This document shows, piece after piece, positions 38,427 to 55,413 of a DNA stretch of 64,000 bases. Within the stretch, counting starts at the first letter, position 1, and the number at the start of each line of letters is the position of its first letter. The notes under the pieces are model-generated. The model saw nothing but the letters and a program-made list of their open reading frames with translations. It did not search any database and was not told the DNA's origin. Source of the stretch: Candidatus Daviesbacteria bacterium RIFCSPLOWO2_01_FULL_39_23 (GTDB taxonomy: Bacteria; Patescibacteriota; Microgenomatia; Daviesbacterales; UBA10151); NCBI GenBank assembly GCA_001776935.1, contig MFDN01000001.1:293449-357448 (forward strand), written 5' to 3'. The translations under genes were made by a program, and so were the position numbers.

Positions 38427-38428
38427 AT

Positions 38429-41400
38429 ATGAACGATTTTCTAAAACAGTTAGGACAAAATGTCAGTTCAGCTGCAAATCAGGTGAGTAAAAATATTGGG
38501 GATTTCTTCTCCAATACCCAGCGTGGAGTTTCAGAAAGCATTTCTTCATTGGTTAAAGGAACGCAAAAAAACATTTTTGAGCCAATCGGGAAACTCATGC
38601 CTGAACAATATGATATTGAAATAGAGGGACCTTCAGGACAAAAGTACAAAGCATTTAAAAACCTATATGTCGAAACAGCAGCGCAAGCACTCGGTCTTGG
38701 AGGCAGAGATACTGATGTTTTGGAAAGACTTCCCAGCGCCACTATCGGGGCATTCAAAGGAGCAACTGACGGACTGGCACAATCGCTCACCTTTGGCTGG
38801 TGGAATCCGGAGATAAAGTATGCCAACGACATCGAAGAACAGGCTGGCAAAATGACAGAGGTTGAATTCAATGTCATCGGAACTGTAGGTACATTTCTCG
38901 TAGGAGGTGGGCTTGTGGCGGGCGCACTAAAAGGAATTCCTCTTCTTGCCAGAGCAGCAACAATAGCTCCGAGAACATTCAGCTTACTATCAAACGGTCT
39001 TACCTTTGCAGGTCTTACCCAGGTCCAGAAAGACGAAGCCCAAAAAGATGCTGGCCAAAGAGCAAAGGACTTTGTTAGTGATTTTGCATTAGGTGGAGCA
39101 TTTTCAATAGCAGGGATGAAACCTTCATTCTTTAAATCCTCTGCAATTATTGGACCGGCAACTTATGTGACTTCACTTCTTAAAGGAGATTCAAATGAAG
39201 ATGCATTAAAAAACACAGCAGCCATGATGGGACTTCATTCTCTCAATTTTGCTGTAGCTAAATACCTTCCATATGGAGGCAACCCCCAGAAACAAATGGA
39301 GAAAGCCACTGGAGAACAACTAAATATAACAAAGCAGGAGGCACTGAAATATCTAGGTGTGGAAGAAAAAGCCACTGCAGAACAAATCAAACAAGCCTGG
39401 AAAAATAAAGTAGTAGAAATTACCAAAGCATTTCCAGCTCAGGCGAAACAAACCCCTCAAAAGATGGGGCAATTCAATCAAGCTTGGAATACAGCAAATC
39501 GCGCATATGAATTTATAACAAAAGCGAGCAATCCGGCAGGATATACAGGCAAATCATTCCGCCAGGAATTTCAGGATCTTTACTATGAACTCTGGCAGAC
39601 AGTACCAGACAAAAGAGCGTTAATTGTAATAACGATCCGCAATTTGCCTGCAGGATTATCAGTAAGAGCAACCCTGGAAGATTCTCAAAGAAATGAAATT
39701 ATCACAGCATTAGGTGGAGAAAATGCAAAAACCCGACTCGGCAGAGTTGCAGAATTAACAGATGCAGACTTAGTGGCAGTAGCAATGGAGAACAACATCA
39801 AGGTAAGTCCATCAAAAGGAATACTAGAACAGGCAATTGCCGAGGCAGCAAAAACACCCAAAGCAACCCAGCCAACAGTTGAAAGAACAGAGATTTGGAA
39901 TGTGCCAGGCGATCTTATGCCAGTCAAAGGCAAACCTACCTGGAAGCATAGCAAGATGCTCTGGAATACCATGCGCAATCAATACGGCATGACCAACACC
40001 TGGGGCAAAGATATAACAAAAAATAAAGGAGCGGTCTTCTGGATTATCGACACCCTAGAAAACGGACTGGCAAGCAAAAAAGACTTAATGGCCGAAGCCA
40101 GAAAAACAAAAGGGGTACACATGGACAGATACCAGTATAAAAAACTCTATGCAATGTTTAAATCCCACGACTATGATATTGAAGGCTACAAAAAAGTAAT
40201 GGCAACTTTAAAAGGATTAAAACCTGCGGTAATAGAAAAAACCCAGGAGTTTGCTGCTAAAGCTCAGTCACCAGCACAACCTGTTTCTATCTCTGAACCT
40301 GAAGTGAAACCGGCAGAGGGTTTTCAATTTGATCCCAATTCAACAGTAAATCAGGGCAAAGTGATAGTCAAAGACTCAAGCATCTTCGAGAAAGGAACGT
40401 TCTTCCGACAGAAAGGAAAAGATACTGGAGTGTCCTACTTAATGGGTAAGAATACTCAAACCGGGAATACAGAAGTACAGACAATCTATTTTGACAAAAA
40501 GTTATTTGCCGAAGAAAAAGCAGCTAAGTGGTGGACGAAAAATGCAGACAGATTTATAAAACCTTGGAGTGTAAAAGAAGAAAAACTTCCATCTACACCA
40601 GAACCAAAGCATGTGTCTGAGATAACAAAAGAAGGTACAATCCGAGTCGTCCGTTATTCAACAGAAAAAACAGTCAATACCGATGAATTTAGAGGCGGGA
40701 CTTGGTATGCAACACCGGAAAGCAAAACATTTGATTTCAGCAAAGAAGAAGGCATTGGAGGAAATCTAAAAACTGAAACAGCGGTAGAAGTTAAAAATCC
40801 TCTTGTGATTAAGGGAGCAAACACAGAAGATGGTTCGTTTGCTGTGGTGAACGAAGGTTATGAAAACTTCCTGCCAGAGCAACAGAAAAACCTTGCAAAT
40901 GAATTATGGGAAAGAATTCATACACCTGAAGAAATCCCAGACGAAACGGAAACAGAAGGGATCATAAGTGATATCTTAATCAGAAATGGAGACGGTAAAG
41001 ATCAGATTGCCAATGTAGTCAAATCATCGAACAAAATCGACGCAGCCATGGATCTGATAATTTCCAAAGGATTAAAAGTGGAGGGTTATGATGCTCTTAT
41101 ACTCACAAACACATATAAGGATCAGGAAATAGATAGACATGTATTTAAGTTTATAAAGGAAACCGAACCTACTGTAAAACCTTTAATAACTGATAAATTT
41201 ACCCCAGCCGAGCAAAAAGCTGCCAGAGCCGAAGAAATCAGGTTGAAATATAGGCCGGAAGAAAAAGAATTGCTCGATGTAGAACGAATCCCTAGTATTG
41301 GTGAAATCATGCGAAGCACAAAATTCAAAGATAGAATCTCCGGAAAGGTAACTGCGCCTGATACACCAAGAGCAGATGAATTAAAAGATGCCCCCTCAGG

Positions 41401-44062
41401 GCAGCCACCTAGATCCCCAGAAGAAACACCCTTATCAGGTTCAACTCCTCCGCCTGAAGGCAGTGCACTTAGTGCAATAGATGCGATGGTGGGCAAAAAG
41501 TCCGCAGTAAGGAATATTGGTGAAATGATAACAGGAGCAATCAGATCATTCCCCCGTTTGTTTACTGATAGGTTTGCGGCTATCAGAAAATTTGAAGATG
41601 ATGTCAGTAAACTGCAAGGACAACCAATAGATATAAACTCCAGTCCTTACGTAGCAGCCAGAATGTATGCCGGAAGGTTTGGTATTGTGGAAGGAAGTTT
41701 TCGAGATTTACAAAAAATATTAGAGTCAGTAAGAAAGCTGCGGCCAGATTTCACAAGGTTCGTATTAGCACAACGTGCCATTGAAAGGGGTGAGAGAGGA
41801 TTTCAAAACCCAGCTGGAGTAACTCAGGAGACTGCCAAACAAGCACTTGAAGAACTAAGAGCAAAGGTCGGCGAAAAAGTATACCAACAATTTGAACAAG
41901 CTGGGCAAAATATCCAGGACTGGTCCATAAACACAATCCTAAAACCTATGAAGAATGCAGGTATTCTTAGTAACGAAGCATTCAACGCGATAACCGAAAA
42001 GAATAAGCACTGGATGCCCTTCCATGTTCTCGATTACCTGCCAAGTCCGGAACAGGCAGACAAGATACCAATTGGCAGTGAAACCTTTTCAGTGAGTAAA
42101 CAAGGAGTAGTAAAAGCGCTGGAAGGAACAGAGAAAATTATCAGAGATCCTTTCGAGTCTATTCTCGACAACCTGACAAAAGCAGTATCGCTAACCAAAA
42201 GAAATGAAGTAGCTCGTAAGTTAATAGACTTGAGGAACGTTCATCCGGAAGCAAAAGAGTTTATTAAATTCCTGCCAGGAGATCAAAGACCACAAGAAGG
42301 ATGGGACAGCATCTCTGTATTTATAAAAGGTAAAGCAATCCGCTGGGCATTACCAAACGAACTCTCAGAAGCAATGCATGCTATGACTCCGCCGGAAGCA
42401 AACCTTCTTGGGAAAATGATTCTGTTGTCCTCCAAAGCATTCAAAGCGGGTACAACTACTCTCTATTTTCCATTCACTCTGTCCAATGCAATCAGGGACT
42501 ACCAGACAGCCACAATGGTATCTAAATGGGGCTTTAATCCGGCAGTCTGGCTCTCAGGTTTTGGAGATGGACTCAAAGGTGCATTCAAATGGGAGTCAAA
42601 AGCCTATGACGAATTCATGAGAAATGAGGGTGGCTATGGAGGCTATATACAATCTGCCAAAGGACTCGCTATAGCGTCAAAAGAATTATTCGCACCCCAA
42701 TGGATGCAAAGAACAAAAGCAGTCCTTAATCCATTTGAATTGATAAGTAATTTTTCAGAAGCAATAGAACTGGCTCCCCGTCTTGGAATTTACAAAAAAG
42801 GAATAGGCAAAGAGGGAGTAACACCTCTGGAAGCAGCATTTGAGGCAAGAAACGTCACAGTCGACTTTGCCAAAGCAGGTATAGAAGGAAGGCTTATTAA
42901 TATGTGGATTCCATTCGTAAATGCCAGATGGCAGGGGTTACTCAACGTAGGGCGTGTAATGAAGGACAATCCGCTAAGAACTGCAGCAAGAGCGCTGGCA
43001 ATGACTGTTCTGCCAGGAGTAGCAACCTATTTTTATAACGTCATGAATCATGAGGAACTTTGGGATGATATTCCACAATGGGCAAAAGACACCTACTTCA
43101 TCATTATCGTAGGAGAAGAAAAAGATAAAGACGGCAATACAGTACCAAAAGTGGTGCAAATTCCAAAAGGAGATATCGGCGCAATTTTCTTCAATCCAAT
43201 CATGTACGCACTGGAATATGTAAGAAAGCAAGAACCGCAAAACCTCTTCGCGCTGGGGTTGGAATGGACCAGCCAGCTCTCGCCTGTGCCATTTACCAGA
43301 GATGGTGAATTATCAGCGCAGGCATTTTTGGGAGGCGCTCTTCCTCCGGCATTAAAAACACCAATAGAGCTGGCAACCAATACAAACTTCTTTACAGGCT
43401 TTCCTGTAGTGCCAAGAAAGCTGGAAAAGGTAGCACCCTCTGAGCAATATGATGAAAGAACTCCGGAACTGGCAATAACAGTAGGCAGAGCATCGGGAGT
43501 AAGTCCTATGAAACTGACTCACGCAATCTACGGCTTAACAGGCAGTTTCTCCAAAGAATTAATCAATCCGACAGATATCCTCGGAATGACAGCGCAGCGC
43601 TTTTACAGGGCATCAGGTGGCGAGAAACAACGCCTTGCGTGGGATTTGAAGTATGACACCGAAGTTGGCTACAACACGACCCGCTTGCAAATTCAGAAAG
43701 CCATGCAGGAAGGTAATATGCAGGAAGCACAACGGATCGCTACAGAGTGGAATACAAAAGCTGCACAAATTGTACCCGTTATAGTTCCGCTTCTTATGAA
43801 AGATGATCCTAAAGAAGCTGCCAGTTTTCAGAAAAGCGTCACATTCGGTAATGACGATATACAGAGACTACTGAAATTAAATCCTCCTGCAGAAAACACA
43901 AGTCAACCGAAAGGCTCAGAGATTAGAGGTATTAAAAATTTATTAAGAGGTAGCCAACCGCCTGCAGGTGCATCTCAAGCACAACCAACAATGGGTCAAT
44001 TTTTCCCGGGTAATAAACAAAGCGGAGATGATCAAACCATTAAAAACTTAATTTATCGATAA
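38429..44062 (+). CDS. Giant (approx. 1877-1900 aa) virion-associated protein (internal/ejection or tail-associated), function unknown
   Basis: ORF track 38360-44062. In-frame ATG at 38429 follows the upstream stop and an AGGAG RBS. N-terminal Gly-rich hydrophobic segments, Pro/acidic linker near residue 1000, no catalytic motif recognised. Confidence 0.5.
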   Translation: MNDFLKQLGQNVSSAANQVSKNIGDFFSNTQRGVSESISSLVKGTQKNIFEPIGKLMPEQYDIEIEGPSGQKYKAFKNLYVETAAQALGLGGRDTDVLERLPSATIGAFKGATDGLAQSLTFGWWNPEIKYANDIEEQAGKMTEVEFNVIGTVGTFLVGGGLVAGALKGIPLLARAATIAPRTFSLLSNGLTFAGLTQVQKDEAQKDAGQRAKDFVSDFALGGAFSIAGMKPSFFKSSAIIGPATYVTSLLKGDSNEDALKNTAAMMGLHSLNFAVAKYLPYGGNPQKQMEKATGEQLNITKQEALKYLGVEEKATAEQIKQAWKNKVVEITKAFPAQAKQTPQKMGQFNQAWNTANRAYEFITKASNPAGYTGKSFRQEFQDLYYELWQTVPDKRALIVITIRNLPAGLSVRATLEDSQRNEIITALGGENAKTRLGRVAELTDADLVAVAMENNIKVSPSKGILEQAIAEAAKTPKATQPTVERTEIWNVPGDLMPVKGKPTWKHSKMLWNTMRNQYGMTNTWGKDITKNKGAVFWIIDTLENGLASKKDLMAEARKTKGVHMDRYQYKKLYAMFKSHDYDIEGYKKVMATLKGLKPAVIEKTQEFAAKAQSPAQPVSISEPEVKPAEGFQFDPNSTVNQGKVIVKDSSIFEKGTFFRQKGKDTGVSYLMGKNTQTGNTEVQTIYFDKKLFAEEKAAKWWTKNADRFIKPWSVKEEKLPSTPEPKHVSEITKEGTIRVVRYSTEKTVNTDEFRGGTWYATPESKTFDFSKEEGIGGNLKTETAVEVKNPLVIKGANTEDGSFAVVNEGYENFLPEQQKNLANELWERIHTPEEIPDETETEGIISDILIRNGDGKDQIANVVKSSNKIDAAMDLIISKGLKVEGYDALILTNTYKDQEIDRHVFKFIKETEPTVKPLITDKFTPAEQKAARAEEIRLKYRPEEKELLDVERIPSIGEIMRSTKFKDRISGKVTAPDTPRADELKDAPSGQPPRSPEETPLSGSTPPPEGSALSAIDAMVGKKSAVRNIGEMITGAIRSFPRLFTDRFAAIRKFEDDVSKLQGQPIDINSSPYVAARMYAGRFGIVEGSFRDLQKILESVRKLRPDFTRFVLAQRAIERGERGFQNPAGVTQETAKQALEELRAKVGEKVYQQFEQAGQNIQDWSINTILKPMKNAGILSNEAFNAITEKNKHWMPFHVLDYLPSPEQADKIPIGSETFSVSKQGVVKALEGTEKIIRDPFESILDNLTKAVSLTKRNEVARKLIDLRNVHPEAKEFIKFLPGDQRPQEGWDSISVFIKGKAIRWALPNELSEAMHAMTPPEANLLGKMILLSSKAFKAGTTTLYFPFTLSNAIRDYQTATMVSKWGFNPAVWLSGFGDGLKGAFKWESKAYDEFMRNEGGYGGYIQSAKGLAIASKELFAPQWMQRTKAVLNPFELISNFSEAIELAPRLGIYKKGIGKEGVTPLEAAFEARNVTVDFAKAGIEGRLINMWIPFVNARWQGLLNVGRVMKDNPLRTAARALAMTVLPGVATYFYNVMNHEELWDDIPQWAKDTYFIIIVGEEKDKDGNTVPKVVQIPKGDIGAIFFNPIMYALEYVRKQEPQNLFALGLEWTSQLSPVPFTRDGELSAQAFLGGALPPALKTPIELATNTNFFTGFPVVPRKLEKVAPSEQYDERTPELAITVGRASGVSPMKLTHAIYGLTGSFSKELINPTDILGMTAQRFYRASGGEKQRLAWDLKYDTEVGYNTTRLQIQKAMQEGNMQEAQRIATEWNTKAAQIVPVIVPLLMKDDPKEAASFQKSVTFGNDDIQRLLKLNPPAENTSQPKGSEIRGIKNLLRGSQPPAGASQAQPTMGQFFPGNKQSGDDQTIKNLIYR

Positions 44063-44067
44063 AAACT

Positions 44068-45141
44068 ATGGCAGATATCATACGATCAATAGAACCATTT
44101 GAACTGACACAGGGATTCGGAGACAACCCTCAGGCTTACGCCCGTTTTGGACTAAAAGGTCATAACGGTTGGGATTTAAGAACTCAATATCCGGATACTC
44201 CTAAAGGCTTCAGGAACATACTGACTTCATGGTTGAGCAAATTTTATACCCAAGGAAACGAAGGAAACGATGGTTTCGGGCTCTATTTTGAAGTTATTGT
44301 ACAACTTTATAACACATATAAACTCACTTACGCACATTGCAATTCGATAGAAAACTTTCAAACAAAAAACGAAGGTGAAGCAATGGGCATAAGTGATAAC
44401 ACTGGAAACAGTACCGGCAGTCACCTTCATCTGACAGTAAAAAGAGGTTCACTCCAAAATGGAAAGTTTATAAGCGATAACTACAATAACGGCTACTTCG
44501 GAGCAATTGAACCACAAGAATTCTATGATGAATTAAGACAGTATAAAAAAGAGAAAGGTACAACACAAAACCCAGAAGGCTGTCTTGTCCCCAACACTCT
44601 AGAATGGAGGCAAAAGTACGAAGAAATTGTAAGTAGCGCTAATAAATGGGCAGAAACGCTAAAGATTTTAGAGATAACTGATGACCCTAACACTACCCCT
44701 CCCGATAGAATTAAAAGCACCATCGCTGGGTATAAAAGTAGGGAAACAGACTTAAACAACAAGCTAAATGAGAAACAACAACAGATTGATGTTGCCAACA
44801 GAGAACTAGAGAATAGAAAAGAACAAGTTAGCAGAATGGAAAAAGGACTGCTAGATAAGGAAAAGTATTACAAGTCCCAAATAGACGCACTAAATAAACA
44901 GATTAAAAACGGCTCTGAATCTCTACCCTTGGCACAGGCTAGGATAGGGGTACTGGAAAAGGAACTTGACGAAGCTAATAAAGCAAAAGGGGGAGCGTTA
45001 CTGGGAGCTGAAGAATATAAAACAAAGTTCGAGTCATCCCAAAAAGGCACACTAATACCTACTCCGCAAATTATCTTCTCGTTAATTATTCAGTACATAG
45101 GAAATAGTCTCAAACCAAAAGGGGGTGATAAGCATGGATAA
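44068..45141 (+). CDS. M23-family peptidase (endolysin-like) with C-terminal coiled-coil and hydrophobic tail
   Basis: 'GHNGWDLR' (HxxxD) and 'GSHLHLTV' (HxH) zinc-ligand motifs. Coiled-coil 'NKLNEKQQQIDVANRELENRKEQVSRME'. Confidence 0.65.
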   Translation: MADIIRSIEPFELTQGFGDNPQAYARFGLKGHNGWDLRTQYPDTPKGFRNILTSWLSKFYTQGNEGNDGFGLYFEVIVQLYNTYKLTYAHCNSIENFQTKNEGEAMGISDNTGNSTGSHLHLTVKRGSLQNGKFISDNYNNGYFGAIEPQEFYDELRQYKKEKGTTQNPEGCLVPNTLEWRQKYEEIVSSANKWAETLKILEITDDPNTTPPDRIKSTIAGYKSRETDLNNKLNEKQQQIDVANRELENRKEQVSRMEKGLLDKEKYYKSQIDALNKQIKNGSESLPLAQARIGVLEKELDEANKAKGGALLGAEEYKTKFESSQKGTLIPTPQIIFSLIIQYIGNSLKPKGGDKHG

Positions 45142-45659: not shown

Positions 45660-45947
45660 TTATTTACCCTTCTTCTTTTCTTTGGTAGGAAGTGGTTCGT
45701 GACCCAGAAGATTTTGGAGATCCTTTGTAAAGCCTTCAAAGGCATTGGCATTCAAAACAGTGAAGTAATTTGTATCAGGTACACCTGTAAATATAAGTGT
45801 ATCGCCGGGCTGGATATTTTGTGCCTTTCTTAATTTTGCAGGAATAACCAACTGGCCTCTAGAACTTACTGGAGATGTTCCATAAACAACAGTTTTTGCC
45901 TCTTTTCTTACTGCTTTGCCCTCTTTTTGCTTTGTTTTGTTTTTCAT
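45660..45947 (-). CDS. AbrB/MazE (SpoVT_AbrB swapped-hairpin) family small DNA-binding protein
   Basis: 'GQLVIPAKLRKAQNIQPGDTLIF' matches the looped-hinge-helix motif. Confidence 0.5.
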   Translation of the reverse strand: MKNKTKQKEGKAVRKEAKTVVYGTSPVSSRGQLVIPAKLRKAQNIQPGDTLIFTGVPDTNYFTVLNANAFEGFTKDLQNLLGHEPLPTKEKKKGK

Positions 45948-46247
45948 ATATTGAAACTAAATTTTGGGCAGTGTAAAATCTTAGATAAGAGAAATCTTAA
46001 ATCTCTTAAGTTTATTAGAATGTATTATACAATAAACGTGGATAAAATACGCAAGGAAGATGCTATAATAAAAACGTTAGCTGGGAGAAGCAAAAGATTT
46101 TATACCCATGTGGTCTTTAAGAGATTGGAGCTGTAGCTGGAGATCTAGTGTGATATAGTCCCTGAGGCTAAATAGGTCCGAGCCAATTACGCTCCCCCGC
46201 TCACAAGTCTTAACTTGCTTTAAGTGTATTTACAAATTTGTGTAATT

Positions 46248-47960
46248 TTACCGACTGGATTCTTGTAGATGATAGACCTGCATTTTTCGTAATAGATCAA
46301 ACAGTTGTTCTGATAATTCTTTCTCAGTTTGCAGCTGTCCGGCCTCTTGGGAACTTTTCATAAATCTTTTTTTTATTTCTTCAAATCCAGCAGGACTGAG
46401 TAATTGCCGGGCGTTTTCAACTTGAATTCTTGCTCTGTTTCTACTTCTCAGCCAACGTGCTGCTAATTCATTATTCCATTGATCGATAGTGCCATCAACA
46501 AACACATGCCATTCTTGTCCAACTAATATTGCACCCGCAAATATGGAATTAAAATCTGTCAATCCCATATCTTCTTCTATTGCTTGCCTGCTTCTGTGAA
46601 CTAAGCCCTCATAAGAGGGTAAATTATTCACATACCAACCCGAACTTTCTGATACAGCAAATAATTGCTCAATTAGAAATGATCCCGGCCGTTTATAGTT
46701 GCCTTCTACCAGCAATAAGCCTGCTTGGGTAACAGAGGGGATAACTCTATAATCTGGATAGCCCATTCGCTCAAGTTTTCGTTTAGCCAATTCAGCAACT
46801 TTCTGCGGACTTTCTTCACTTTTCTCCTTGCATACTGCCAGCTGGTCTCTATGACAGTAGGCAGAACAGACGGATTCAAACTTTGGTTTTGTATCGCCCG
46901 ACCAATGTGCCAATCTATCCGGTGTGGGCTGATGATATTTTAATGTCATCAGCTGTGAAACAGCGCAACTTGTGTTATTGTGCACTGGGGTGCTGATCCC
47001 CATATCTGATGCGACTTGTCTAACAAGTTTTTTTATACCGTCGGGTAAAATTTTTGCTACAGGATAATCAATCGCAGTGTATTCGGGTGGTAACGGATAC
47101 CCGGCTTTACTAAAAGCTTCTGCTGTAACACCCCGATATACAAAAAGACCTCCAACCGTATAAATATCGGCAAATTGTTGCGTATCATGAATAGTTTCTT
47201 TAATTTTACCTTCAGTTGCATTAATTCCTGTGATCATAGGACGCATAGAAACAATAACCGGAATGCCTGCATTGTGCATTTGCTCCATTGTTTTTAAGCG
47301 TGCTTTTCCGTTTATTGGTTCAATTTCCTGTGGCATTCCGCTGTAGGTTACAATGCAGATAGGCCTTCCTCCCATTTCTTTCACTTTTCTTATTTGTTCT
47401 GCATAGTTTGGAGTAATGCCCATTTTTGTAATAAACAAAATTGGCCCGGTGTGTTGTAACTCGGTTACCATTCTTTTCATGATTTCAACAGTTTTGCCCC
47501 AATCCATTCCAGGATCATTGAAGTTTTCCAATATAACTGAAGAGCTTGTTTCGTAGTATGGATATTGCCCTATTGCATTTATTAAATCATCTGCGGCAAT
47601 TTCTTGATCTATTTTGTTGCCAACCATGAGTCTGGAATTAACTGATATGCCTCCGTCCACCCCACAGGACAAATATCCGGCTATTTTATCTCCATTTGTG
47701 TTTTTATCTAAAGAGATTTGGTTGCAATAAATACATCCGACTGCGCATCCGGGACCGCTTTCTCCAGCATGAACAATTCCGGTTTTTTTCCAAAGAGCAG
47801 TCGGACGCAAGCTCTGGTCAATGTGTTCAGAAAATATGAGATCTGCAGAAGGTAAGCTTACGCCTTCCAGAGGTGTAAACGTTCCAAAAACAGGATTGCC
47901 TTCTGCTTCTCGTCCCATTGGGCGGACGTATTTATTAGAATTATTTGATTCTATTGACAT
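46248..47960 (-). CDS. Radical SAM protein (570 aa) with C-terminal extension, function unknown
   Basis: 'ESGPGCAVGCIYCNQ' gives CxxxCxxC after a Gly-rich stretch. The ~200-aa C-terminal extension has no recognised motif. Confidence 0.65.
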   Translation of the reverse strand: MSIESNNSNKYVRPMGREAEGNPVFGTFTPLEGVSLPSADLIFSEHIDQSLRPTALWKKTGIVHAGESGPGCAVGCIYCNQISLDKNTNGDKIAGYLSCGVDGGISVNSRLMVGNKIDQEIAADDLINAIGQYPYYETSSSVILENFNDPGMDWGKTVEIMKRMVTELQHTGPILFITKMGITPNYAEQIRKVKEMGGRPICIVTYSGMPQEIEPINGKARLKTMEQMHNAGIPVIVSMRPMITGINATEGKIKETIHDTQQFADIYTVGGLFVYRGVTAEAFSKAGYPLPPEYTAIDYPVAKILPDGIKKLVRQVASDMGISTPVHNNTSCAVSQLMTLKYHQPTPDRLAHWSGDTKPKFESVCSAYCHRDQLAVCKEKSEESPQKVAELAKRKLERMGYPDYRVIPSVTQAGLLLVEGNYKRPGSFLIEQLFAVSESSGWYVNNLPSYEGLVHRSRQAIEEDMGLTDFNSIFAGAILVGQEWHVFVDGTIDQWNNELAARWLRSRNRARIQVENARQLLSPAGFEEIKKRFMKSSQEAGQLQTEKELSEQLFDLLRKMQVYHLQESSR

Positions 47961-48452
47961 TTATCCTCCGGTTATAGATCTATTGGGAAGGTTTAAAGAA
48001 TTATTTAGCCGCTCCAGTGCTTCTGTAATGATTCCCGGGACTTGTGGTAATGTGGGCAATCTTTTTAGGGCATCTAAAGGCACCCAAGTAAAAGCAGAGG
48101 ATTCATGATTAGCGCCTATATTGATATCTTCATTTGCCAAATCAATAATATAAGCAAACATAAGCCGGTGATAGGAAATTACTTTCCCGTCCGGCTGTTG
48201 CTTTTGAAAAGTTGATGAACGGATAATCGGCCCGGGAATGATAATCCTTGCGTCCGAGTTAAGTTCTTCTCCTATTTCCCTTTTTAATGTATCTTCCGGA
48301 TGCTCTCCAAATTCCAAAGCGCCCCCGGGCAATTGCCACTTATTATGTTCCTCAGGATTGTCTGGTTGATAACGTTTGGTTAACAACACCTGATTATCTT
48401 TATTGAATGCAACTCCTAATACACCAGCAATAAGTACTTCTGCTTTTGACAT
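47961..48452 (-). CDS. NUDIX hydrolase
   Basis: Nudix box 'GGALEFGEHPEDTLKREIGEELN' (Gx5Ex7REUxEExGU). Directly abuts the radical SAM gene. Confidence 0.75.
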   Translation of the reverse strand: MSKAEVLIAGVLGVAFNKDNQVLLTKRYQPDNPEEHNKWQLPGGALEFGEHPEDTLKREIGEELNSDARIIIPGPIIRSSTFQKQQPDGKVISYHRLMFAYIIDLANEDINIGANHESSAFTWVPLDALKRLPTLPQVPGIITEALERLNNSLNLPNRSITGG

Positions 48453-48685
48453 TTTATTATAGTATTATATTTCCCACACAAATATAAATAATAACAAAAA
48501 AATAGGAAATAGTCAAAACTATAGGGTTAACTGTGCAAAAGTCCTGCAAGGGTTATTTTCCGATATTGGGAAAACAAGCATCTAATTCATAAGGTGTGGG
48601 TTTAACAATGCAGGCCCTTGATGGGAATTCTACCTTACTGATGCTGCAGACATTGTTAGATAATTTAAGGTGCAAGCCAAGGATT

Positions 48686-48895
48686 CTATTTAACTGCAAT
48701 AGATATTAATTTTTCGTGATATTCCGGCTTTATTGTAGTATCCACTCCATATAAAACTATTTCTGTAATATCAAATGTCCAACTTACTTTTTTAAGTCTG
48801 GAAGTTAATTCTGCCTTGGAAGCTTTAAATACAATTTGAGCCTCCGGATCTCCTACCCAACAGAAGTATATCAAAATTTGCTTCTGTAAATACAT
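48686..48895 (-). CDS. Small hypothetical protein
   Basis: 69-aa ORF overlapping the nuclease gene end. Coding status uncertain. Confidence 0.2.
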   Translation of the reverse strand: MYLQKQILIYFCWVGDPEAQIVFKASKAELTSRLKKVSWTFDITEIVLYGVDTTIKPEYHEKLISIAVK

Positions 48896-49524
48896 AAACT
48901 ACAAGTTTTTGAAACTGCAGGCAAATCTCCGTTTAACAAAGTTGAAATTTCGCGGATTAAGTTATGGAAGCTTTCCGTATCTTCTTCTACCGGATGATAT
49001 TTTGGAGTGGTAGTAAAAATTACTTTTCCATCTACTAATTTCATTTCATCAGGGTTAATACTTACAATACCCATTTTTGAAACTTTAATCGGTTTTCCGC
49101 TGCTTGGGTTTTCCAGCGCAAATTTATATGCGTGTAGTTGACTTATATATTTGGATATTTTTTCGCTGTCCGGAGTGGTTATTTTAAAATCTATTATTGC
49201 AAAAGTGCCATCATCAAGCTTACTTAAAATATCAAACCTGCCGCTAAGATAGCAGTTTGTACCGTCAATAGTTATTGATTTCATATAGCCTTCCTGAATT
49301 TCTATAATTCCGCTTGGCAAGTCCGGGTGAATATCGGATAAATTCATTCCCATGATTGAATCCTGCAATAATTTATTAATCCGGCCAAACATGGAGGGGA
49401 ATATACCGGAGTGGAAGACACCCAGTTTTACTTTTTGGTAATAGCAATGTTTACAGTCATTCCAAAGGTAAGCAAAATCCGAAGGACTCAGTTTATATAA
49501 TTTATCATCTTTAGATTGCGGCAC
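48871..49524 (-). CDS. Cas4/RecB-like PD-(D/E)XK nuclease with Fe-S cysteine cluster (stand-alone, no CRISPR nearby)
   Basis: N-terminal 'CKHC'. 'GRFDIL'/'AIIDFK' core. 'QLHAY' (QxxxY motif of RecB-family nucleases). C-terminal 'CSLC'. Confidence 0.5.
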   Translation of the reverse strand: MPQSKDDKLYKLSPSDFAYLWNDCKHCYYQKVKLGVFHSGIFPSMFGRINKLLQDSIMGMNLSDIHPDLPSGIIEIQEGYMKSITIDGTNCYLSGRFDILSKLDDGTFAIIDFKITTPDSEKISKYISQLHAYKFALENPSSGKPIKVSKMGIVSINPDEMKLVDGKVIFTTTPKYHPVEEDTESFHNLIREISTLLNGDLPAVSKTCSLCIYRSKF

Positions 49525-49636
49525 ATATTCAGACTATGATAAAAATTAATCTGAAGTCAAGAGTAATTTTTATACAAAAGTTTTTGCGTCTTTGGTACCT
49601 TACACACAACGGTGTTGGTTTAAACGTAGAATTTTC

Positions 49637-50026
49637 TTATTTGGGTTTTAATTCTAAATCTTCTTTTTGAAGATCGAACTTCACAACGAACTTATCAAAA
49701 AATCCTTTTTGTCCAACAATTCCATAAGCTGAACTTCTCATAGACATAAATCCAGCTTCTGTTTTATATTCCAAGCCTCCTACCTTTATCAGAATTTCAT
49801 GGAGATAGTAGAATTCCGGAAAACCAGTTAATCCCGAAACTTGTTGGCGTTCTCCTTTGAGTATATCTATTCCTAAAATCTCGGCTATGTGTGCGTCAAA
49901 AATACAAAGATCTGCTCCTGAATCCACTAAAACTTCATATGGTACTTCTACACTATTTTTAATAATTTCAATTGGAATCACAGGACGAAGCACTCTAGGG
50001 CCGTATTTTTTATACCTAAATTTCAT
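49637..50026 (-). CDS. Retropepsin-like (clan AA) aspartic protease
   Basis: 'VLVDSGADLCIFD' D(S/T)GA active-site motif in a 129-aa protein. Confidence 0.55.
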   Translation of the reverse strand: MKFRYKKYGPRVLRPVIPIEIIKNSVEVPYEVLVDSGADLCIFDAHIAEILGIDILKGERQQVSGLTGFPEFYYLHEILIKVGGLEYKTEAGFMSMRSSAYGIVGQKGFFDKFVVKFDLQKEDLELKPK

Positions 50027-50226
50027 TGATGAGAGCCAACGTATGAGGTAAGTTTGGAAGGGAATTTAGTTAAAATTGGTTTATTATAACCCAATTTTCG
50101 TGCCTTATCCCACACTGATTTAGCAGTTCTACCGCTTGCTAAAACAGTCTTTTCATCATTTTTTAAAGCCACCCAGAGGCCTTTATATTTTTTATAGATT
50201 TGCGTCCAATCTATTGCCATAAACAA
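50023..50226 (-). CDS. Small partner protein of the aspartic protease (DUF5678-like)
   Basis: 67 aa. 4-nt overlap with the protease gene. Such small proteins recurrently precede stand-alone retropepsin-like genes (recalled, not verified). Confidence 0.3.
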   Translation of the reverse strand: MFMAIDWTQIYKKYKGLWVALKNDEKTVLASGRTAKSVWDKARKLGYNKPILTKFPSKLTSYVGSHQ

Positions 50227-50623: not shown

Positions 50624-51193
50624 CTATAACAAATTTAATCCTTCTAGCTTCAAATCATTAATGATCTCTCTATAATTAGGGATTGTTCTGCTAACTAGAT
50701 TCCAAAATTTTGATGAATGATTGAATTCTTTCAAATGACATAATTCGTGAACAATAATGTAATCTTGCAATTCAGTAGGAAGTAAAGCAATTTTAAAGTT
50801 GAAGTTAAGGTTCTTTTTCTTTGAACAGCTTCCCCAACGTGTTCTCTGATTTTTAATAGCAAGCTTATTAAATTTGTACCTATATATCTTATTAAAGTGT
50901 TCGATTCGTACGCTAGTAATCTGTAATGCTATTTCTTTATGCTGAATATAAGCTTTGGATGTTAGTTTGAAAGTTTTAGATAAAGACGCATTTTTAAAGA
51001 AATCTAGTTTTGATAATACCCACTTTGATTTCCCAATAATGTATTTCTCTGCTGTAGTCTCATTTAGCCCTTTAGGCAGCGTAACTACAAAATTACCATC
51101 GCAATAGACAGCTAATCTCATCCGTTTTGCTTTTCTACTTCGACGGATTAAGTAAGTTACGATTCGATTATGCAAGGTAATCTTTCGTTTCAT
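50624..51193 (-). CDS. YgjP-like/DUF45 (M48-related, WLM-like) zinc metallopeptidase
   Basis: 'YIIVHELCHLKEFNHSSKFW' matches the YgjP HExxH...NHS..FW signature. Start overlaps the hsdR stop. Confidence 0.75.
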   Translation of the reverse strand: MKRKITLHNRIVTYLIRRSRKAKRMRLAVYCDGNFVVTLPKGLNETTAEKYIIGKSKWVLSKLDFFKNASLSKTFKLTSKAYIQHKEIALQITSVRIEHFNKIYRYKFNKLAIKNQRTRWGSCSKKKNLNFNFKIALLPTELQDYIIVHELCHLKEFNHSSKFWNLVSRTIPNYREIINDLKLEGLNLL

Positions 51194-54129
51194 TAGAATT
51201 TTTTGATCACAATATCAACAAGTCTATTTAAGAATTTTGGGAAATCCTCAACTTGTATTCTATCCTTATACTCTTTGAGAAGGAGTTCTTGGACAATTTG
51301 CTTTACACCTTTGAGAAATTCCTCACGTTTTGATGAATTTTGCCAGCCCTCGTCAAGAATAGACTGCAATCTTTTTGAAAGGTCTTTTGACAAAGTTAGC
51401 AGGAGTGGTTGATCTGTTTTTGGTAAAAACTCTTGAGAAATCACAAATAATCCATACTCTCTCAAATTAAGTCCTAAGTCTTTTGCTTCATCTGCCTTGC
51501 TCTTGATATCATTCATTAAATCAAAGTAACGTTTGATTCTTTCGGAAAGATCAATTTGGTGCTGTTCAAACTCCTTGCGAATGGCAGTTAATCTTTCGCT
51601 AAACTTTTGAAAAATAGGATTAGTATCAATATTAATAGAAATTTCCTGCTTAAGCATTTTTTCAAGATTTAACGCTTTTTCTTCATCGTCCATTTTGTCT
51701 AATCGTTCAAGAGTATAAATATCGTTGATTTTTAACTCTCTAAAATTTTTAGTAATTCCTTCGTAGTCAATTTGTTCTTGAATCAATTTCTTAACTTTCT
51801 CCCCATATTGTCCAAAGGTTGGTATATCGCCAGTGCGGAAGGCTTCCATTGCAATATTTTCTGCACGGAAATCATTAAGGAAGGCAATATAAACACTGGT
51901 AATCCATTCAAACGCTCGAATGTAGTCCGCGAGGAATGGATCTGGTGACAAAACCTCAAATAATAATTTTAATCGACTATACTTATCAGTAAAATAACGT
52001 TGTTTTCCTTCGTTATCAATAAAGATCTTAAGGCAAGTCCTCAAGTTTTCGATAGATGGATCTTCTTGATTAATGCCAATAAAAATATCTTTAATTTCGG
52101 TTAATATTTCTAGGAATTCCTTTTTTAGGTGATCAAGGTCTATAAGTGCTGAGTCAATTATGCTTTCATCAAAATTTAAGGCTTCATAGAGGTTTCTAGT
52201 AATACCATAATAATCAATAATTTTTCCACATCCCTTGTTCGGGTAAACCCTGTTCGTACGAGCTATGGCTTGCAGCAAATTATGATCTCTCAAAGGCTTG
52301 TCAAGATACATTGCTTGTTCAATCTGAGCATCAAAACCTGTTAGGAGCATGTCGCATACCAATAGTAATCTCAAAGGACTTCTGTGGTCTTTGAACTTAT
52401 CAATAATCTTTTCTCTTTGAGCTTTGCTAGTATTATATTTTTTTAGATTATCAGCATCAGTGTTAGGATCACCAGATGAATAAATAACTTCTGTCCAATC
52501 AGCAGGGATTAACTCGTCAAAAAGCTCCTTGAATCTGGCTGTGGCTTCCCGATCATAACAAACAACCTGGGCTTTAAAGCCATTCGGCTCAATGTAAAGC
52601 CTGTAATGATCAACAATATCTTGAGCAACAGCCCTCATTCGTTTATCCAGCTTTATTAGCGCCTCTTTCTTACCATATCTACGCATAACTAGTTGCTTTT
52701 GTTCAGGAGAAAGATCAGTTGTCATCTCATCAAATTGCTGATCAATTTTTTCTTCATCAATAAAGAATTTCGAAAGACGAGCTTCATATGTTACAGGTAA
52801 TGTTGCACCATCATCAATTGCTTGTTGAATCGAATAGTAATCAAGATATCTTTCGCCTTCTTGGCCAAAGTTTCGGTGAGTATTTAAGGTTGTTTTATCA
52901 ATTGGTGTGCCTGTAAATCCAAAGAAAAAGGCTCTTTGCATTGAATCTCGCAATTTTATCCCAGCCACACCTTCGTTTGATCGATGAGCTTCATCTGAAA
53001 GGATAATGACGTTTTCATTAGGATTCTCAAGGTGTAGCGGAAGCTCGTTGAACTTCTCGATAGTTGAAATAAAGATTCCTCTTTCATCATTGGTGATTTT
53101 TTTCTCAAGGTCTCGACAAGAAGTAACCCTGATTACGTTTTTACCGCCCGCATTGACGAATGTATCATGAATCTGATCATCAAGATCAATACGATCAACA
53201 AGGACAAACACCTTTGGATTCCTGAGCGTCTTATCAAATCTAAGTTTCCATGCTGTAAAGAACATTGTTAAAGATTTTCCAGATCCTTGTGTATGCCAGA
53301 TTAAGCCTTTTCTCTTTTCTCGATCCTGTACTCGTTCAACAATTTTATTGGTTGCACGAAGCTGTTGATAGCGGGCGATCTTTTTGACTCGACCATCTTT
53401 TGTCTGCTCAAAGACAATAAAGTTTTTGACTATGTCTAACAATCTTTTTTTCTCAAGTAAGGATGTCAGGGTCATTTCAAGCTGTCCGTCAAGTTTTTTT
53501 TCAAGTTTTTCATCTTTCCACTGCAAGAAATACTGCTCTGGAGCATAAGTGGTTGCATAAACAGTTTTTAAGCCATCTGTCGCAACATTAAAGCAGTTCG
53601 GCCAATACAGCTTCATTGCAACTCGTTCATAACGTTTTATTTGGCCAATTGCATTTTCGTAACTAACGCTTGTTGATGCGGTAGGGCTTTTTGCTTCTAT
53701 ATCAGCAATGGGGACACCATTAAGAAAGATCAAAATATCAGGGCGTATATTTTCCAGATTGCCTTCAAAGTAGAATTGATTTGTGACTATAAAGTGATTA
53801 TTTTCAGGATTGTCGTAATCAACAATCATATAGTCACGCATTTTGCCTGTTTCTGAATCCTTTAGATTTATGCCATTACGGAGCATATTCAAAAAACCTT
53901 CGTTTGTATCAATTTTCTTTATTTCTCGGATAACACTTTGTACTTCTGTATCATCTGTAATGTTATTGATTCGCTTTATAGCTTCCGCAAGATGAGAATT
54001 GATCAGATATTCATTTTCTAATTCTCTCAAAAGCGCAAATTTTTCAGGAGTAATGTACTCATAGCCCAGATTTTGGGATAAGAATTTGATGATATGTTTT
54101 TCAACTGTATATTGTTCGTTAAATTTCAT
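51193..54129 (-). CDS. hsdR: Type I restriction enzyme R subunit (HsdR)
   Basis: 978 aa. Walker A 'TQGSGKSLTMF', DEAH box 'ILSDEAHRS', helicase motif VI region. N-terminal nuclease-like region. Confidence 0.9.
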   Translation of the reverse strand: MKFNEQYTVEKHIIKFLSQNLGYEYITPEKFALLRELENEYLINSHLAEAIKRINNITDDTEVQSVIREIKKIDTNEGFLNMLRNGINLKDSETGKMRDYMIVDYDNPENNHFIVTNQFYFEGNLENIRPDILIFLNGVPIADIEAKSPTASTSVSYENAIGQIKRYERVAMKLYWPNCFNVATDGLKTVYATTYAPEQYFLQWKDEKLEKKLDGQLEMTLTSLLEKKRLLDIVKNFIVFEQTKDGRVKKIARYQQLRATNKIVERVQDREKRKGLIWHTQGSGKSLTMFFTAWKLRFDKTLRNPKVFVLVDRIDLDDQIHDTFVNAGGKNVIRVTSCRDLEKKITNDERGIFISTIEKFNELPLHLENPNENVIILSDEAHRSNEGVAGIKLRDSMQRAFFFGFTGTPIDKTTLNTHRNFGQEGERYLDYYSIQQAIDDGATLPVTYEARLSKFFIDEEKIDQQFDEMTTDLSPEQKQLVMRRYGKKEALIKLDKRMRAVAQDIVDHYRLYIEPNGFKAQVVCYDREATARFKELFDELIPADWTEVIYSSGDPNTDADNLKKYNTSKAQREKIIDKFKDHRSPLRLLLVCDMLLTGFDAQIEQAMYLDKPLRDHNLLQAIARTNRVYPNKGCGKIIDYYGITRNLYEALNFDESIIDSALIDLDHLKKEFLEILTEIKDIFIGINQEDPSIENLRTCLKIFIDNEGKQRYFTDKYSRLKLLFEVLSPDPFLADYIRAFEWITSVYIAFLNDFRAENIAMEAFRTGDIPTFGQYGEKVKKLIQEQIDYEGITKNFRELKINDIYTLERLDKMDDEEKALNLEKMLKQEISINIDTNPIFQKFSERLTAIRKEFEQHQIDLSERIKRYFDLMNDIKSKADEAKDLGLNLREYGLFVISQEFLPKTDQPLLLTLSKDLSKRLQSILDEGWQNSSKREEFLKGVKQIVQELLLKEYKDRIQVEDFPKFLNRLVDIVIKKF

Positions 54130-54776
54130 ATAGTTTTAAGAAAATCAAAGTCCTTTTCTGAAATATATTTATTTGTTCTCTTGAATAACAGTTCTGTCTT
54201 TGTTAATGGTTTAGACTGGATTTTGATTGAAGCTTCGAATGTTTTTTTATACTTAGTAATAATATCGTTTGCAAAATCATCTATTGAGTTAACTACATCA
54301 TAATAAAACGTATTCGCGTCTAACATCAACACGTTATCAATAAATACTAGATGATTTCCAGCCTGTACTTCTTGCGGATTATTTTGATTTCCGATTGTAA
54401 ATTGTAGACCGATTACTTTCTTTTTGTAACTAAAGCATTTTGGTTCATGCTGATGGAGCAAACCATGCCGATACACAAAAACCATAAAAGCTGCAACTTC
54501 TTTATAACGTGATCTTTTAATACCCATGACTTCTGATAAATAGGTCTTAATATTTAATCCAGTTGAGTGAGGATTTCCAGTTATATAAGAACCCAACCCA
54601 TCAATCTCAGGAAAAAGCATTCTAGGAATGGCATAAAAACCAGCTCCACCGGTTTGATCGATTTGACTAGACCAACCTTCAAAAGCTCCGCCCACATCAT
54701 TTATAATTGATTGTTTAATGCGGTTAATTAAATAACTTTTAATTTGATCGTCTGTGTATTTATTTTTAAGTTTCAT
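54126..54776 (-). CDS. Hypothetical protein embedded in the Type I R-M operon; possible HEPN-like Rx4H motif
   Basis: 216 aa, soluble. 'VFVYRHGLLHQHEP' fits Rx4-6H. 4-nt overlap with the hsdR start. Confidence 0.35.
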   Translation of the reverse strand: MKLKNKYTDDQIKSYLINRIKQSIINDVGGAFEGWSSQIDQTGGAGFYAIPRMLFPEIDGLGSYITGNPHSTGLNIKTYLSEVMGIKRSRYKEVAAFMVFVYRHGLLHQHEPKCFSYKKKVIGLQFTIGNQNNPQEVQAGNHLVFIDNVLMLDANTFYYDVVNSIDDFANDIITKYKKTFEASIKIQSKPLTKTELLFKRTNKYISEKDFDFLKTI

Positions 54777-54783
54777 AGTTAAA

Positions 54784-55413
54784 TTACTTTAATGGACAAA
54801 TTAGAAATGATGATAGTAAAAGTAAAATTCCAACTACAGATAAAATAAGAATCACTCTATGGGGAGGTATTTCATCCTTCTGTTCTTTTTTTCTTCCAAT
54901 GAATTCAAGGATTTTATTGTTCTTTTCTGAAATAGCCAACATATTAGATTTTTTTAATGTTTGACTGTTCATGTAATCTTTACTTATTTCCAAGTAGACC
55001 TTGTCTCGATCTTTATACAACTCAGAAACTGTATTTGATGATTTTTGTATTGCTGAAAGATTGGATTCGTAAAAGCGTTTTAACCACCATAAACCGACAA
55101 GGATTGACGATACCAACATTGCCTCTCCAGTTAGAAAGATGTAAAGGTTTTTTACTCTGTCTATCGCTGTAAACCCAAAACCTGCAAAAATGCCAACAAT
55201 TGAAAGCATCTGGTAAGTAAAGCCAATAAAGCGATATAACAAATCTATTTCATTCTTTCCGTACTCTGCCATCGCTTCACCCTCCGTCTTCAAACCCTTT
55301 GAAAAGACTCCCTCGTAAAGCTCTCTATAATCCTGCTCTGATAGTTTTATTGTGTCGTTATTCATATCAGTTAATTTGTACTTTCTGACTAAAAATATCT
55401 TGCATAAGTCCAT
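54784..55413 (-). CDS. Hypothetical membrane protein embedded in the Type I R-M operon
   Basis: 209 aa. Two central and one C-terminal hydrophobic helices ('IVGIFAGFGFTAI', 'LVSSILVGLWWL', 'VILILSVVGILLLLSSFLI'). Start overlaps the hsdS end. Confidence 0.4.
   Translation of the reverse strand: MDLCKIFLVRKYKLTDMNNDTIKLSEQDYRELYEGVFSKGLKTEGEAMAEYGKNEIDLLYRFIGFTYQMLSIVGIFAGFGFTAIDRVKNLYIFLTGEAMLVSSILVGLWWLKRFYESNLSAIQKSSNTVSELYKDRDKVYLEISKDYMNSQTLKKSNMLAISEKNNKILEFIGRKKEQKDEIPPHRVILILSVVGILLLLSSFLICPLK

Follow-up and report, generated by a model that had tools for sequence, protein, structure and literature searches.

Do the genes that lie between a phage-like module and a Type I restriction-modification (R-M) operon form a defence system, or are they independent units that share a strand? 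The question is raised by a 4.6-kb interval (positions 45660-50226) in a stretch of 64,000 nucleotides, hereafter the window, from Candidatus Daviesbacteria bacterium RIFCSPLOWO2_01_FULL_39_23 (assembly GCA_001776935.1, contig MFDN01000001.1, positions 293,449 to 357,448 of the forward strand). The original prediction, made from the DNA letters and their translations, described the interval as a multi-system defence island consisting of a radical S-adenosylmethionine (SAM) enzyme, a NUDIX hydrolase, a Cas4-like nuclease and a retropepsin-like protease with a small partner. All the open reading frames (ORFs) that it named are present on the minus strand where it had placed them in the ORF listing, and searches of Pfam, NCBIfam and PADLOC agree with its domain calls, weakly in the case of the Cas4-like nuclease and with the qualification that the radical-SAM protein does not match PF04055. 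Rather than a single system, the interval is a mosaic made up of four units that are independent of each other: a solitary AbrB-like gene, a NUDIX-radical-SAM operon, a nuclease gene and a cassette of a DUF5678 gene and a retropepsin gene. This reading is based on the wide distribution of the nuclease and of the protease pair, each of which is found elsewhere with different neighbours. The NUDIX-radical-SAM operon is a good lead to a nucleotide-modifying pathway not yet known, its radical-SAM enzyme being a member of an uncharacterised family with a distinct architecture.

The radical-SAM enzyme and its NUDIX partner

The radical-SAM gene (46248-47960, minus strand) encodes a protein of 570 residues, named 'hypothetical protein' in GenBank, of a rare family that is absent as such from Pfam and NCBIfam. 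The protein is a radical-SAM enzyme, although a very divergent one. This assignment is based on an invariant CX3CX2C motif, on the barrels found among solved structures with the AlphaFold2 (AF2) model, on a weak match to NCBIfam PA0069 and on relatives that reach PF04055. The motif that would hold the [4Fe-4S] cluster, C72-x3-C76-x-Y78-C79 followed by N80 and Q81 (47724-47747, minus strand), reads C72-AVG-C76-I-Y78-C79 and thus has the aromatic residue before the third cysteine that is expected in the superfamily. Among 35 aligned family members C72, C76, Y78, C79 and Q81 are invariant and N80 is conserved in at least 90%. The window protein has no match to PF04055 (Radical_SAM) even at E 0.1; the domain is carried by some family members and distant relatives, which bridge the family to the superfamily.

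The AF2 model computed from the 35-sequence alignment (pLDDT 89.6, pTM 0.88) has the predicted barrel fold of the superfamily. The top Foldseek matches in the PDB are the barrels of HydE, BioB, LipA and LAM (probability 1.0, E 1e-4 to 4e-3, TM score 0.4-0.5), and those in BFVD are radical-SAM proteins of viruses and phages. An assignment to a named subfamily was attempted by searching both databases with the full model, and only generic radical-SAM barrels were returned. Searches of PDB sequences with phmmer and with profiles gave nothing meaningful.

Only two NCBIfam models, PA0069 (NF033668) and Rv2578c (NF038135), both of the COG1533 group, match the protein at E 0.1, and no other named family has detectable similarity to it in sequence. 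The PA0069 match (2.3e-7) covers residues 71-250 and scores 30.1 bits against a cut-off of 360, and Rv2578c scores 12.9 against 430, so that the protein belongs to neither. The spore photoproduct lyase (SPL) model has no NCBIfam match at E 0.1, and SPL is absent from the top 50 structural matches. SPL, which repairs 5-thyminyl-5,6-dihydrothymine in DNA, has about 340 residues and no extra domains; the window protein, with 570 residues, an extra cysteine-rich segment and a C-terminal domain, is not an SPL. PADLOC gave no viperin match of any kind at E 0.1. The comparison with viperin and SPL proposed in the original prediction therefore puts the enzyme closer to the branch of SPL/COG1533 than to viperin, and within neither; as far as sequence can tell, its relation to that branch is only remote. 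No NCBIfam equivalog match at E 0.1 was found to RlmN, QueE or MiaB, the housekeeping families that had been named as identities that would speak against a defence role, or to MoaA.

The model comprises a disordered N-terminus (residues 1-40), a barrel with an insert (about 57-330), a cysteine-rich segment and a C-terminal domain. The insert, a four-strand beta-meander that follows the cluster loop, is specific to the family. In the cysteine-rich segment (46830-46967, minus strand) C332, C365, C369 and C377, spaced as C...CX3CX3QX3C, are invariant in the family; of 75 distant relatives, 64 retain C332 and about half the CX3CX3QX3C part. The pattern suggests that the four cysteines bind an auxiliary Fe-S cluster. 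The C-terminal domain (residues 383-570, about 190 residues; 46251-46814, minus strand) corresponds to the extension of about 200 residues noticed in the original prediction, which is real, being conserved throughout the family and confidently folded (pLDDT 95.4 when modelled alone). It consists of two tandem alpha/beta units and long helices, and carries a conserved basic patch, RWxRSRNRxR. Its Foldseek matches are weak (E 2e-3 to 5e-2, TM score about 0.3) and comprise the tandem KH domains of NusA and archaeal CPSF and the ring-building motifs of type III secretion systems. The KH-like match lacks the GXXG motif. Neither KH nor ring-building motif was adopted as an assignment, the matches being too weak.

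The NUDIX gene (47961-48452, minus strand; 163 residues) lies immediately upstream. Its product is a NUDIX hydrolase with a PF00293 match of 2.9e-18 (66.6 bits against a gathering score of 21.1) and a Nudix box, G44-x5-E50-x7-R58-E59-I-G-E62-E63 (48255-48323, minus strand), whose catalytic residues are intact in the translation. It does not reach the cut-off of any specific NCBIfam equivalog (MutT, NudI, RppH), and the solved structures nearest to it are those of NudI and MutT, which are nucleoside triphosphate (NTP) pyrophosphohydrolases. In PADLOC it matches only the unvalidated candidate PDC-S07, at the domain level. Its stop codon abuts the start codon of the radical-SAM gene (...GGAGGATAA followed directly by ATG), and a Shine-Dalgarno sequence lies inside its last codons; together these features suggest that the two genes are a translationally coupled operon. 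The abutment at 47960/47961, from which a coupled pair had been predicted, indeed marks a real unit, since a NUDIX gene of the same partner type is found directly upstream of the radical-SAM gene in eight loci. Partner-type proteins reach 108-222 bits where the remaining NUDIX proteins of these loci reach 25-52 bits, and by this measure the window NUDIX appears to belong to a clade dedicated to the radical-SAM family.

The operon is separated from the nuclease gene by a gap of 419 bp, which holds a promoter-like site 36 nt upstream of the NUDIX ATG (TTGACT-17-TGTTATTAT, of the form TTGACT-17-(TG)TATTAT; 48488-48516, minus strand). The site comes from a sequence scan and is suggestive only, since such matches are no more numerous in the region than chance would give; possibly it is the operon's own promoter.

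Distribution of the family and its gene neighbourhoods

The family is very small. A word-indexed search of 5.8 billion proteins found only 50 clusters, almost all of full length (about 460-580 residues) and from Patescibacteria metagenomes, and an exhaustive profile search of 1.84 billion representatives found 34 proteins at E<=1e-30, with about 30 clusters at 50% identity. Below this threshold the scores fall steeply to a second tier of radical-SAM proteins of about 350-400 residues, which weakly match PA0069, Rv2578c and PF04055 and have in common the core motifs TK, E214, R240-P241...N247 and C332. Loci of the family number 4 in 185,579 species-representative genomes and 14 in JGI metagenomes, and no relatives were found in a scan of IMG/VR. 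So small and patchy a family is what one would expect of an accessory module that moves horizontally. The closest outgroup of the Daviesbacteria subclade, whose GC content is 38-39%, is a clade in contigs of 55-57% GC labelled Acidobacteria/Terriglobales (loci L012, L013 and L016), where the radical-SAM gene is always followed by an aspartyl-tRNA synthetase gene; this relationship suggests horizontal transfer between phyla. That the operon varies between strains was considered on account of the exact protein occurring on one contig, and was dropped: a cluster look-up places all the interval genes together in the same Daviesbacteria assemblies. Exact sequence matches of the window belong to Candidatus Daviesbacteria (Microgenomates) of the GW2011 groundwater assemblies.

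Some of the distant relatives are fusion proteins. In P0416, of 744 residues, an N-terminal TIR_2 domain is fused to a second-tier radical-SAM core, and other relatives are fused to a NifS-like cysteine desulfurase or a GT2 glycosyltransferase. The fusions were considered as a guide to the substrate and are too mixed to indicate one.

Gene neighbourhoods were compared in 24 dereplicated loci, whose ORFs were searched with hidden Markov models built from the neighbours and whose further neighbours were classified by Pfam; several contigs are very short, and the partner counts are thus lower bounds. At least one of three partners, a guanylate kinase (Gmk)-like kinase, the partner NUDIX or a downstream histidine phosphatase, is present in 18 of the 24. 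The most frequent is the kinase, a divergent P-loop protein encoded within about 3 kb in 12 of the 24, in all four relative orientations. These kinases score 37-81 bits against a guanylate-kinase equivalog cut-off of 160, also match the PhnN model (about 1e-7), and have guanylate kinases as their best PDB matches. The eight loci with the partner NUDIX directly upstream are the window, L011, L031, L032, L020, L005, L004 and L003, the first four of which make up the window's own subclade, so that the gene is present in 4/4 there. A His_Phos_1 phosphatase is encoded directly downstream in three loci (L009, L018, L029), and an isochorismatase-family hydrolase occurs in two (L009, L018). A kinase of the AAA_28 type is encoded directly upstream in L016 and about 4.4 kb upstream in L012; the L013 contig carries no upstream sequence. 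When further neighbours of the window were compared with those of all the radical-SAM loci, only the NUDIX was found in common, and a tblastn search of the window for a Gmk-like gene found none.

Two arrangements are of particular note. In L018 (5986-11232) seven genes on the same strand encode the radical-SAM enzyme, a His_Phos_1 phosphatase, a 276-residue protein of no known kind, an isochorismatase, a Gmk-like kinase, a second such protein of 202 residues and a NUDIX; this run may be the fullest version of the module. In L011 (1475-7302), the closest relative of the window, one strand carries the genes of a HemN-like radical-SAM protein of the STM4012 family, the NUDIX, the 579-residue radical-SAM enzyme and, downstream, a 708-residue PPDK_N protein (phosphoenolpyruvate-utilising, ATP-grasp), which was met in this one locus.

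Substrate and role of the operon

On what does the enzyme act? We propose tentatively, holding the reading at a little less than an even chance, that it acts on a free nucleotide or ribose phosphate and that its partners set the phosphorylation state. The substrate class is one that we infer, and the strongest evidence for it is the recurrent linkage of the family to enzymes that add phosphate to nucleotides or remove it. In the proposed pathway a 5'-deoxyadenosyl radical would transform the free nucleotide or ribose phosphate, most likely a purine nucleotide of the guanine type, and a second Fe-S cluster on the four extra invariant cysteines would probably take part. The partner enzymes would control how far the substrate or the product is phosphorylated. 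The MutT/NudI-like NUDIX would convert an NTP to the monophosphate and pyrophosphate; in most other lineages a divergent guanylate-kinase/PhnN-like kinase would convert a monophosphate to the diphosphate, or alternatively a histidine phosphatase would take off a phosphate. The product may be either an antiviral nucleotide analogue, by the logic of viperin and oxetanocin, or a salvaged or sanitised nucleotide, by the logic of carbon-phosphorus (C-P) lyase. We lean slightly towards metabolic salvage or sanitation over defence.

Parts of such a pathway have precedents in several systems. The core genes of C-P lyase act in the order PhnM, PhnJ, PhnP, PhnN, and PhnJ is not a canonical CX3CX2C enzyme. 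The likeness, which is one of analogy only, lies in the order of the chemistry, from a triphosphate pyrophosphohydrolase through a radical-SAM step on a ribose phosphate to a Gmk-family kinase; the PhnJ motif is non-canonical, however, and no other phn genes are present. In oxetanocin A biosynthesis the cobalamin-dependent radical-SAM enzyme OxsB acts with OxsA, an HD-domain phosphohydrolase, on a (deoxy)adenosine phosphate. There, too, a radical-SAM enzyme is paired with a nucleotide phosphohydrolase, but the window family differs in that OxsB is cobalamin-dependent, OxsA is of the HD-domain and not the NUDIX type, and no sequence relationship to either was detected. Viperin produces 3'-deoxy-3',4'-didehydronucleoside triphosphates. 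It resembles the window family in the link between a radical-SAM gene, in defence-rich regions, and a nucleoside monophosphate kinase, but its kinase is CMPK2-like and that of the window family is Gmk/PhnN-like, and neither the NUDIX and histidine phosphatase partners nor the presumed auxiliary cluster are features of viperin. With the SPL/COG1533 proteins the family has in common the CX3CX(Y)C motif and the core motifs TK, E and RPxxxGxN. It differs from them by the beta-meander insert, the four invariant cysteines, the C-terminal domain of 190 residues and the operon partners, which are nucleotide kinases and phosphohydrolases, in contrast to the SOS genes associated with COG1533.

A fairly unlikely alternative is that the enzyme, like SPL, repairs or modifies nucleic acid, acting on a lesion or base of a DNA or RNA that the KH-like C-terminal domain would hold, while the MutT-like NUDIX sanitises the pool of nucleotides at the same time and the RecB/Cas4-like nuclease completes a loose repair neighbourhood. 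Several observations that weigh against a free-nucleotide substrate point this way. The nearest named relatives, PA0069 and Rv2578c (COG1533/SplB-like), are tied to DNA repair and the SOS response, COG1533 genes being regulated by LexA/SOS in several phyla (PMC8565304, PMC3381160); the C-terminal domain bears a faint likeness to tandem KH domains, its best fold matches, and has a conserved Arg-rich basic patch; and L018 and L019 have the genes of UvrA or UvrAB upstream in divergent orientation, while L004 has that of an HhH-GPD glycosylase nearby. Homologues carry the JGI label 'DNA repair photolyase', and MutT is, with NudI, the closest relative of the NUDIX. The free-nucleotide proposal is weakened also by the composition of the loci: the window's own subclade has no kinase nearby, so that the full module is absent here, and six of the 24 loci (L012, L013, L016, L019, L026, L033) have none of the counted partners in the counted positions, three of these adjoining an aspartyl-tRNA synthetase gene. 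Cysteine conservation is the one line of evidence for the auxiliary cluster, and literature searches on the family, including PA0069 and the combination of radical SAM, guanylate kinase and Nudix, found no relevant paper. On the other side, the PA0069 similarity amounts to 30 bits against a cut-off of 360 and SPL itself gives no match, the KH-like match is weak (TM score about 0.3, no GXXG), and adjacency to UvrA is limited to two loci that are possibly related to each other. A nucleic-acid substrate would moreover give no reason why a Gmk-like kinase, a histidine phosphatase and an isochorismatase recur as partners.

A special case of the free-nucleotide proposal, which we consider unlikely, would be the synthesis of an antiviral analogue: the enzyme would convert an NTP to a chain-terminating or toxic product, the Gmk-like kinase would supply the substrate, the NUDIX would limit self-poisoning or mature the product, and the operon would be a defence system within a defence island. 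The OxsB/OxsA pair, in which a radical-SAM enzyme and a nucleotide phosphohydrolase yield an antiviral nucleoside, offers a precedent. The flanks of the operon hold the Type I R-M genes and SoFic (3.8e-51) and Dsr1-like (7e-59) proteins next to a prophage-like module, and related loci carry conjugation/type IV secretion genes with an integrase (L001), AbiEii (L005), and Fic with DUF4172 and GIY-YIG genes (L003). The family is rare and horizontally distributed, the distant relative P0416 is fused to a TIR domain, and the kinase linkage, 12 of 24 loci, exceeds the 12% of bacterial viperins that have an adjacent nucleoside monophosphate kinase (bioRxiv 10.1101/2023.09.13.557418). Against this, the radical-SAM protein has no PADLOC match at E 0.1, the NUDIX matches only the unvalidated PDC-S07, and homology to viperin is at the superfamily level only; many of the neighbours elsewhere are metabolic or detoxifying (acetyltransferases, APH, HIT, isochorismatase, aspartyl-tRNA synthetase), and the IMG/VR scan found no counterpart on viral contigs. 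The most specific form of this idea, to which we give a low probability, is that the operon, joined in other lineages by the kinase, constitutes an antiviral system built on a radical-SAM enzyme and without relation to viperin; it would make a modified, probably guanine-type, nucleotide and be carried mainly by the ultra-small bacteria of the Candidate Phyla Radiation (CPR), with exchange between these and Acidobacteria. If true, immunity by nucleotide analogues would have arisen a second time, by a route of independent evolution. That the radical-SAM enzyme, NUDIX, nuclease and protease of the whole interval co-function as one defence system is very improbable. The genes do lie on one strand with compact spacing in defence-rich surroundings, but the neighbourhood comparison already contradicts this reading, since, apart from the two pairs, no interval genes turn up together in the other loci that were examined. 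For the nuclease, and likewise for the protease pair, there are hundreds of homologues that lie in other contexts, and the units are split by the 419-bp gap with its promoter-like site and by a gap of 112 bp.

The other units and the surroundings

The nuclease gene (48871-49524, minus strand) encodes a PD-(D/E)XK protein of the RecB/Cas4-like type with 217 residues. Its translation has the motifs GRFD, IIDFK and QLHAY, corresponding to the RecB-type D, (D/E)XK and QxxxY, and four cysteines arranged 2+2 (C24xxC27 ... C208xxC211). These features liken it to Cas4 and AddB, and the combination of a PD-(D/E)XK core with a cysteine cluster and a PADLOC match (3.2e-7) fits Cas4; the cysteines of Cas4, however, are arranged 1+3. 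As the original prediction had observed, there is no CRISPR context: direct- and tandem-repeat scans found no array in the window, and no cas genes occur among the scanned window ORFs (those at 1-22 kb were outside the scan). There are 944 homologues, many of which carry PF12705, and the best 120 of the 944, from Daviesbacteria, Levybacteria and Gottesmanbacteria, are 67-100% identical; over hundreds of Microgenomates genomes the identity is 68-90%, and the neighbours vary. The gene stands alone in L014 and L015, beside UvrA/UvrC in one and RusA and Type I R-M genes in the other. To judge from this conservation, the nuclease appears to be a core gene of Microgenomates and not a defence gene, probably with a role in DNA repair or recombination. 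The original prediction had itself named a conserved recombination gene as the outcome that would undo its defence reading, and in this case the reading does not hold.

A 69-residue ORF (48686-48895, minus strand) overlaps the 3' end of the nuclease gene. It has no match in Pfam, NCBIfam or PADLOC, has no counterpart downstream of the nuclease gene in L014 or L015, and belongs to a 90% cluster from the same species only; its status as a gene is doubtful.

The last two genes are those of the cassette. DUF5678 (50023-50226, minus strand; 67 residues; PF18929, 3.5e-9) lies upstream of a single-domain retropepsin-like aspartyl protease (49637-50026, minus strand; 129 residues; PF13650, 5.7e-6; active-site motif D35-S-G-A), and the two genes overlap by 4 bp. 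The protease has 883 homologues of 60-85% identity in Patescibacteria/CPR, with an invariant DSGA. Among 24 sequences of different CPR lineages 34 positions are invariant, including the N-terminal MKFxYKKY...RPVIP. Such conservation is unusual for a small accessory protein and argues for strong constraint or recent spread. In the Colwellbacteria loci L034-L039, which represent one genomic context, a 65-residue DUF5678 protein is encoded before the retropepsin with the same 4-bp overlap, among neighbours that differ from those in the window, so that the two-gene module suspected in the original prediction is a conserved cassette. As in type II toxin-antitoxin systems, a small upstream gene overlaps the downstream enzyme gene in a bicistron that recurs in different contexts. 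The differences are that neither protein matches a known toxin or antitoxin family, the Pfam matches being to Asp_protease_2 and DUF5678 only, and that conservation across CPR is unusually high. The PDC-M08B match of the cassette is weak (8e-5, 20.7 bits), and neither DUF5678 nor any neighbour matches PDC-M08A at E 0.1, so that the two components of PDC-M08 are not both represented. No relatives of the retropepsin were found in IMG/VR and nothing relevant to DUF5678 in the literature. On its gene order and protein families, the pair would be described as a conserved cassette with a toxin-antitoxin-like architecture.

At the other end of the interval, the AbrB-like gene (45660-45947, minus strand) encodes a 95-residue DNA-binding protein of the AbrB/SpoVT (MazE-fold) type with Lys-rich tails (PF04014, 7.6e-7; TIGR01439, 5e-8), which GenBank names 'transcriptional regulator, AbrB family'. 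It has no toxin partner, does not lie beside the radical-SAM gene in other loci, and is probably a small regulator.

The flanks are as the original prediction had described them. On one side is the phage-like module (plus strand, about 27-45.6 kb), with structural and lysis proteins that include a major head protein, an amidase and a tail fibre. Its structural part ends with an ORF of 1900 residues (38360-44062, plus strand), after which come the genes of an M23 peptidase (44068-45141) and of two small proteins, probably of the membrane; direct- and tandem-repeat scans found no att-like repeats around the module. On the other side is the Type I R-M operon, which is complete and includes a YgjP-like (DUF45) metallopeptidase (50624-51193, minus strand; PF01863, 7.4e-41) whose start abuts the stop of hsdR. 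HsdR itself (51193-54129, minus strand) matches PADLOC REase_I at 1.4e-132. Two ORFs of 216 and 209 residues between hsdR and hsdS (54126-55413, minus strand) have no Pfam or PADLOC match.

Farther along, a Fic-domain protein (59246-60229, minus strand) matches PADLOC SoFic nearly end to end (3.8e-51) and probably constitutes a genuine defence system of one gene; in L003 a distantly related Fic protein that has DUF4172 is encoded 1.3 kb from the radical-SAM gene. Upstream of the phage module lies the gene of a protein of 1128 residues (23417-26803, minus strand), which strongly matches PADLOC Dsr1 (7e-59) over model positions 295-1175 of 1227 and has no Pfam or PHROG match; the N-terminal SIR2 effector part seems to have been replaced or to be missing. 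Partial matches to PDC-M14B (58222-58941, minus strand; 2.8e-11) and, in the N-terminal part only, to PDC-M16A/RecD-like (60288-61469, minus strand; 1.7e-43) may represent further defence genes in fragmentary or variant form. The region is thus rich in defence genes, which lends circumstantial support to a defence role of the operon. Within the interval, Pfam, NCBIfam and PADLOC scans of all proteins found no match to a validated defence system; the PADLOC matches there are all weak and at the domain level, to the candidates PDC-S07 and PDC-M08B and to Cas4. The label of a multi-system defence island is therefore supported in part, by real defence genes in the surroundings and not by the interval's own genes, and overstates the case.

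The analysis removes a false lead, the 'Cas4-like' gene being, as it appears, a Microgenomates core gene, and leaves the operon as the element of wider significance. Radical-SAM enzymes that act on free nucleotides are, to our knowledge, few (viperin, MoaA, QueE and OxsB), and each of these opened new chemistry or immunity. The architecture of the family and its unusually tight link to nucleotide kinases and phosphohydrolases make a substrate screen straightforward. Should the operon have a role in defence, it would be a new system for a group whose immunity is poorly known. Most occurrences of the family are in CPR bacteria, which lack de novo nucleotide synthesis, and a role in salvage or sanitation would therefore bear on the life of these organisms as episymbionts.

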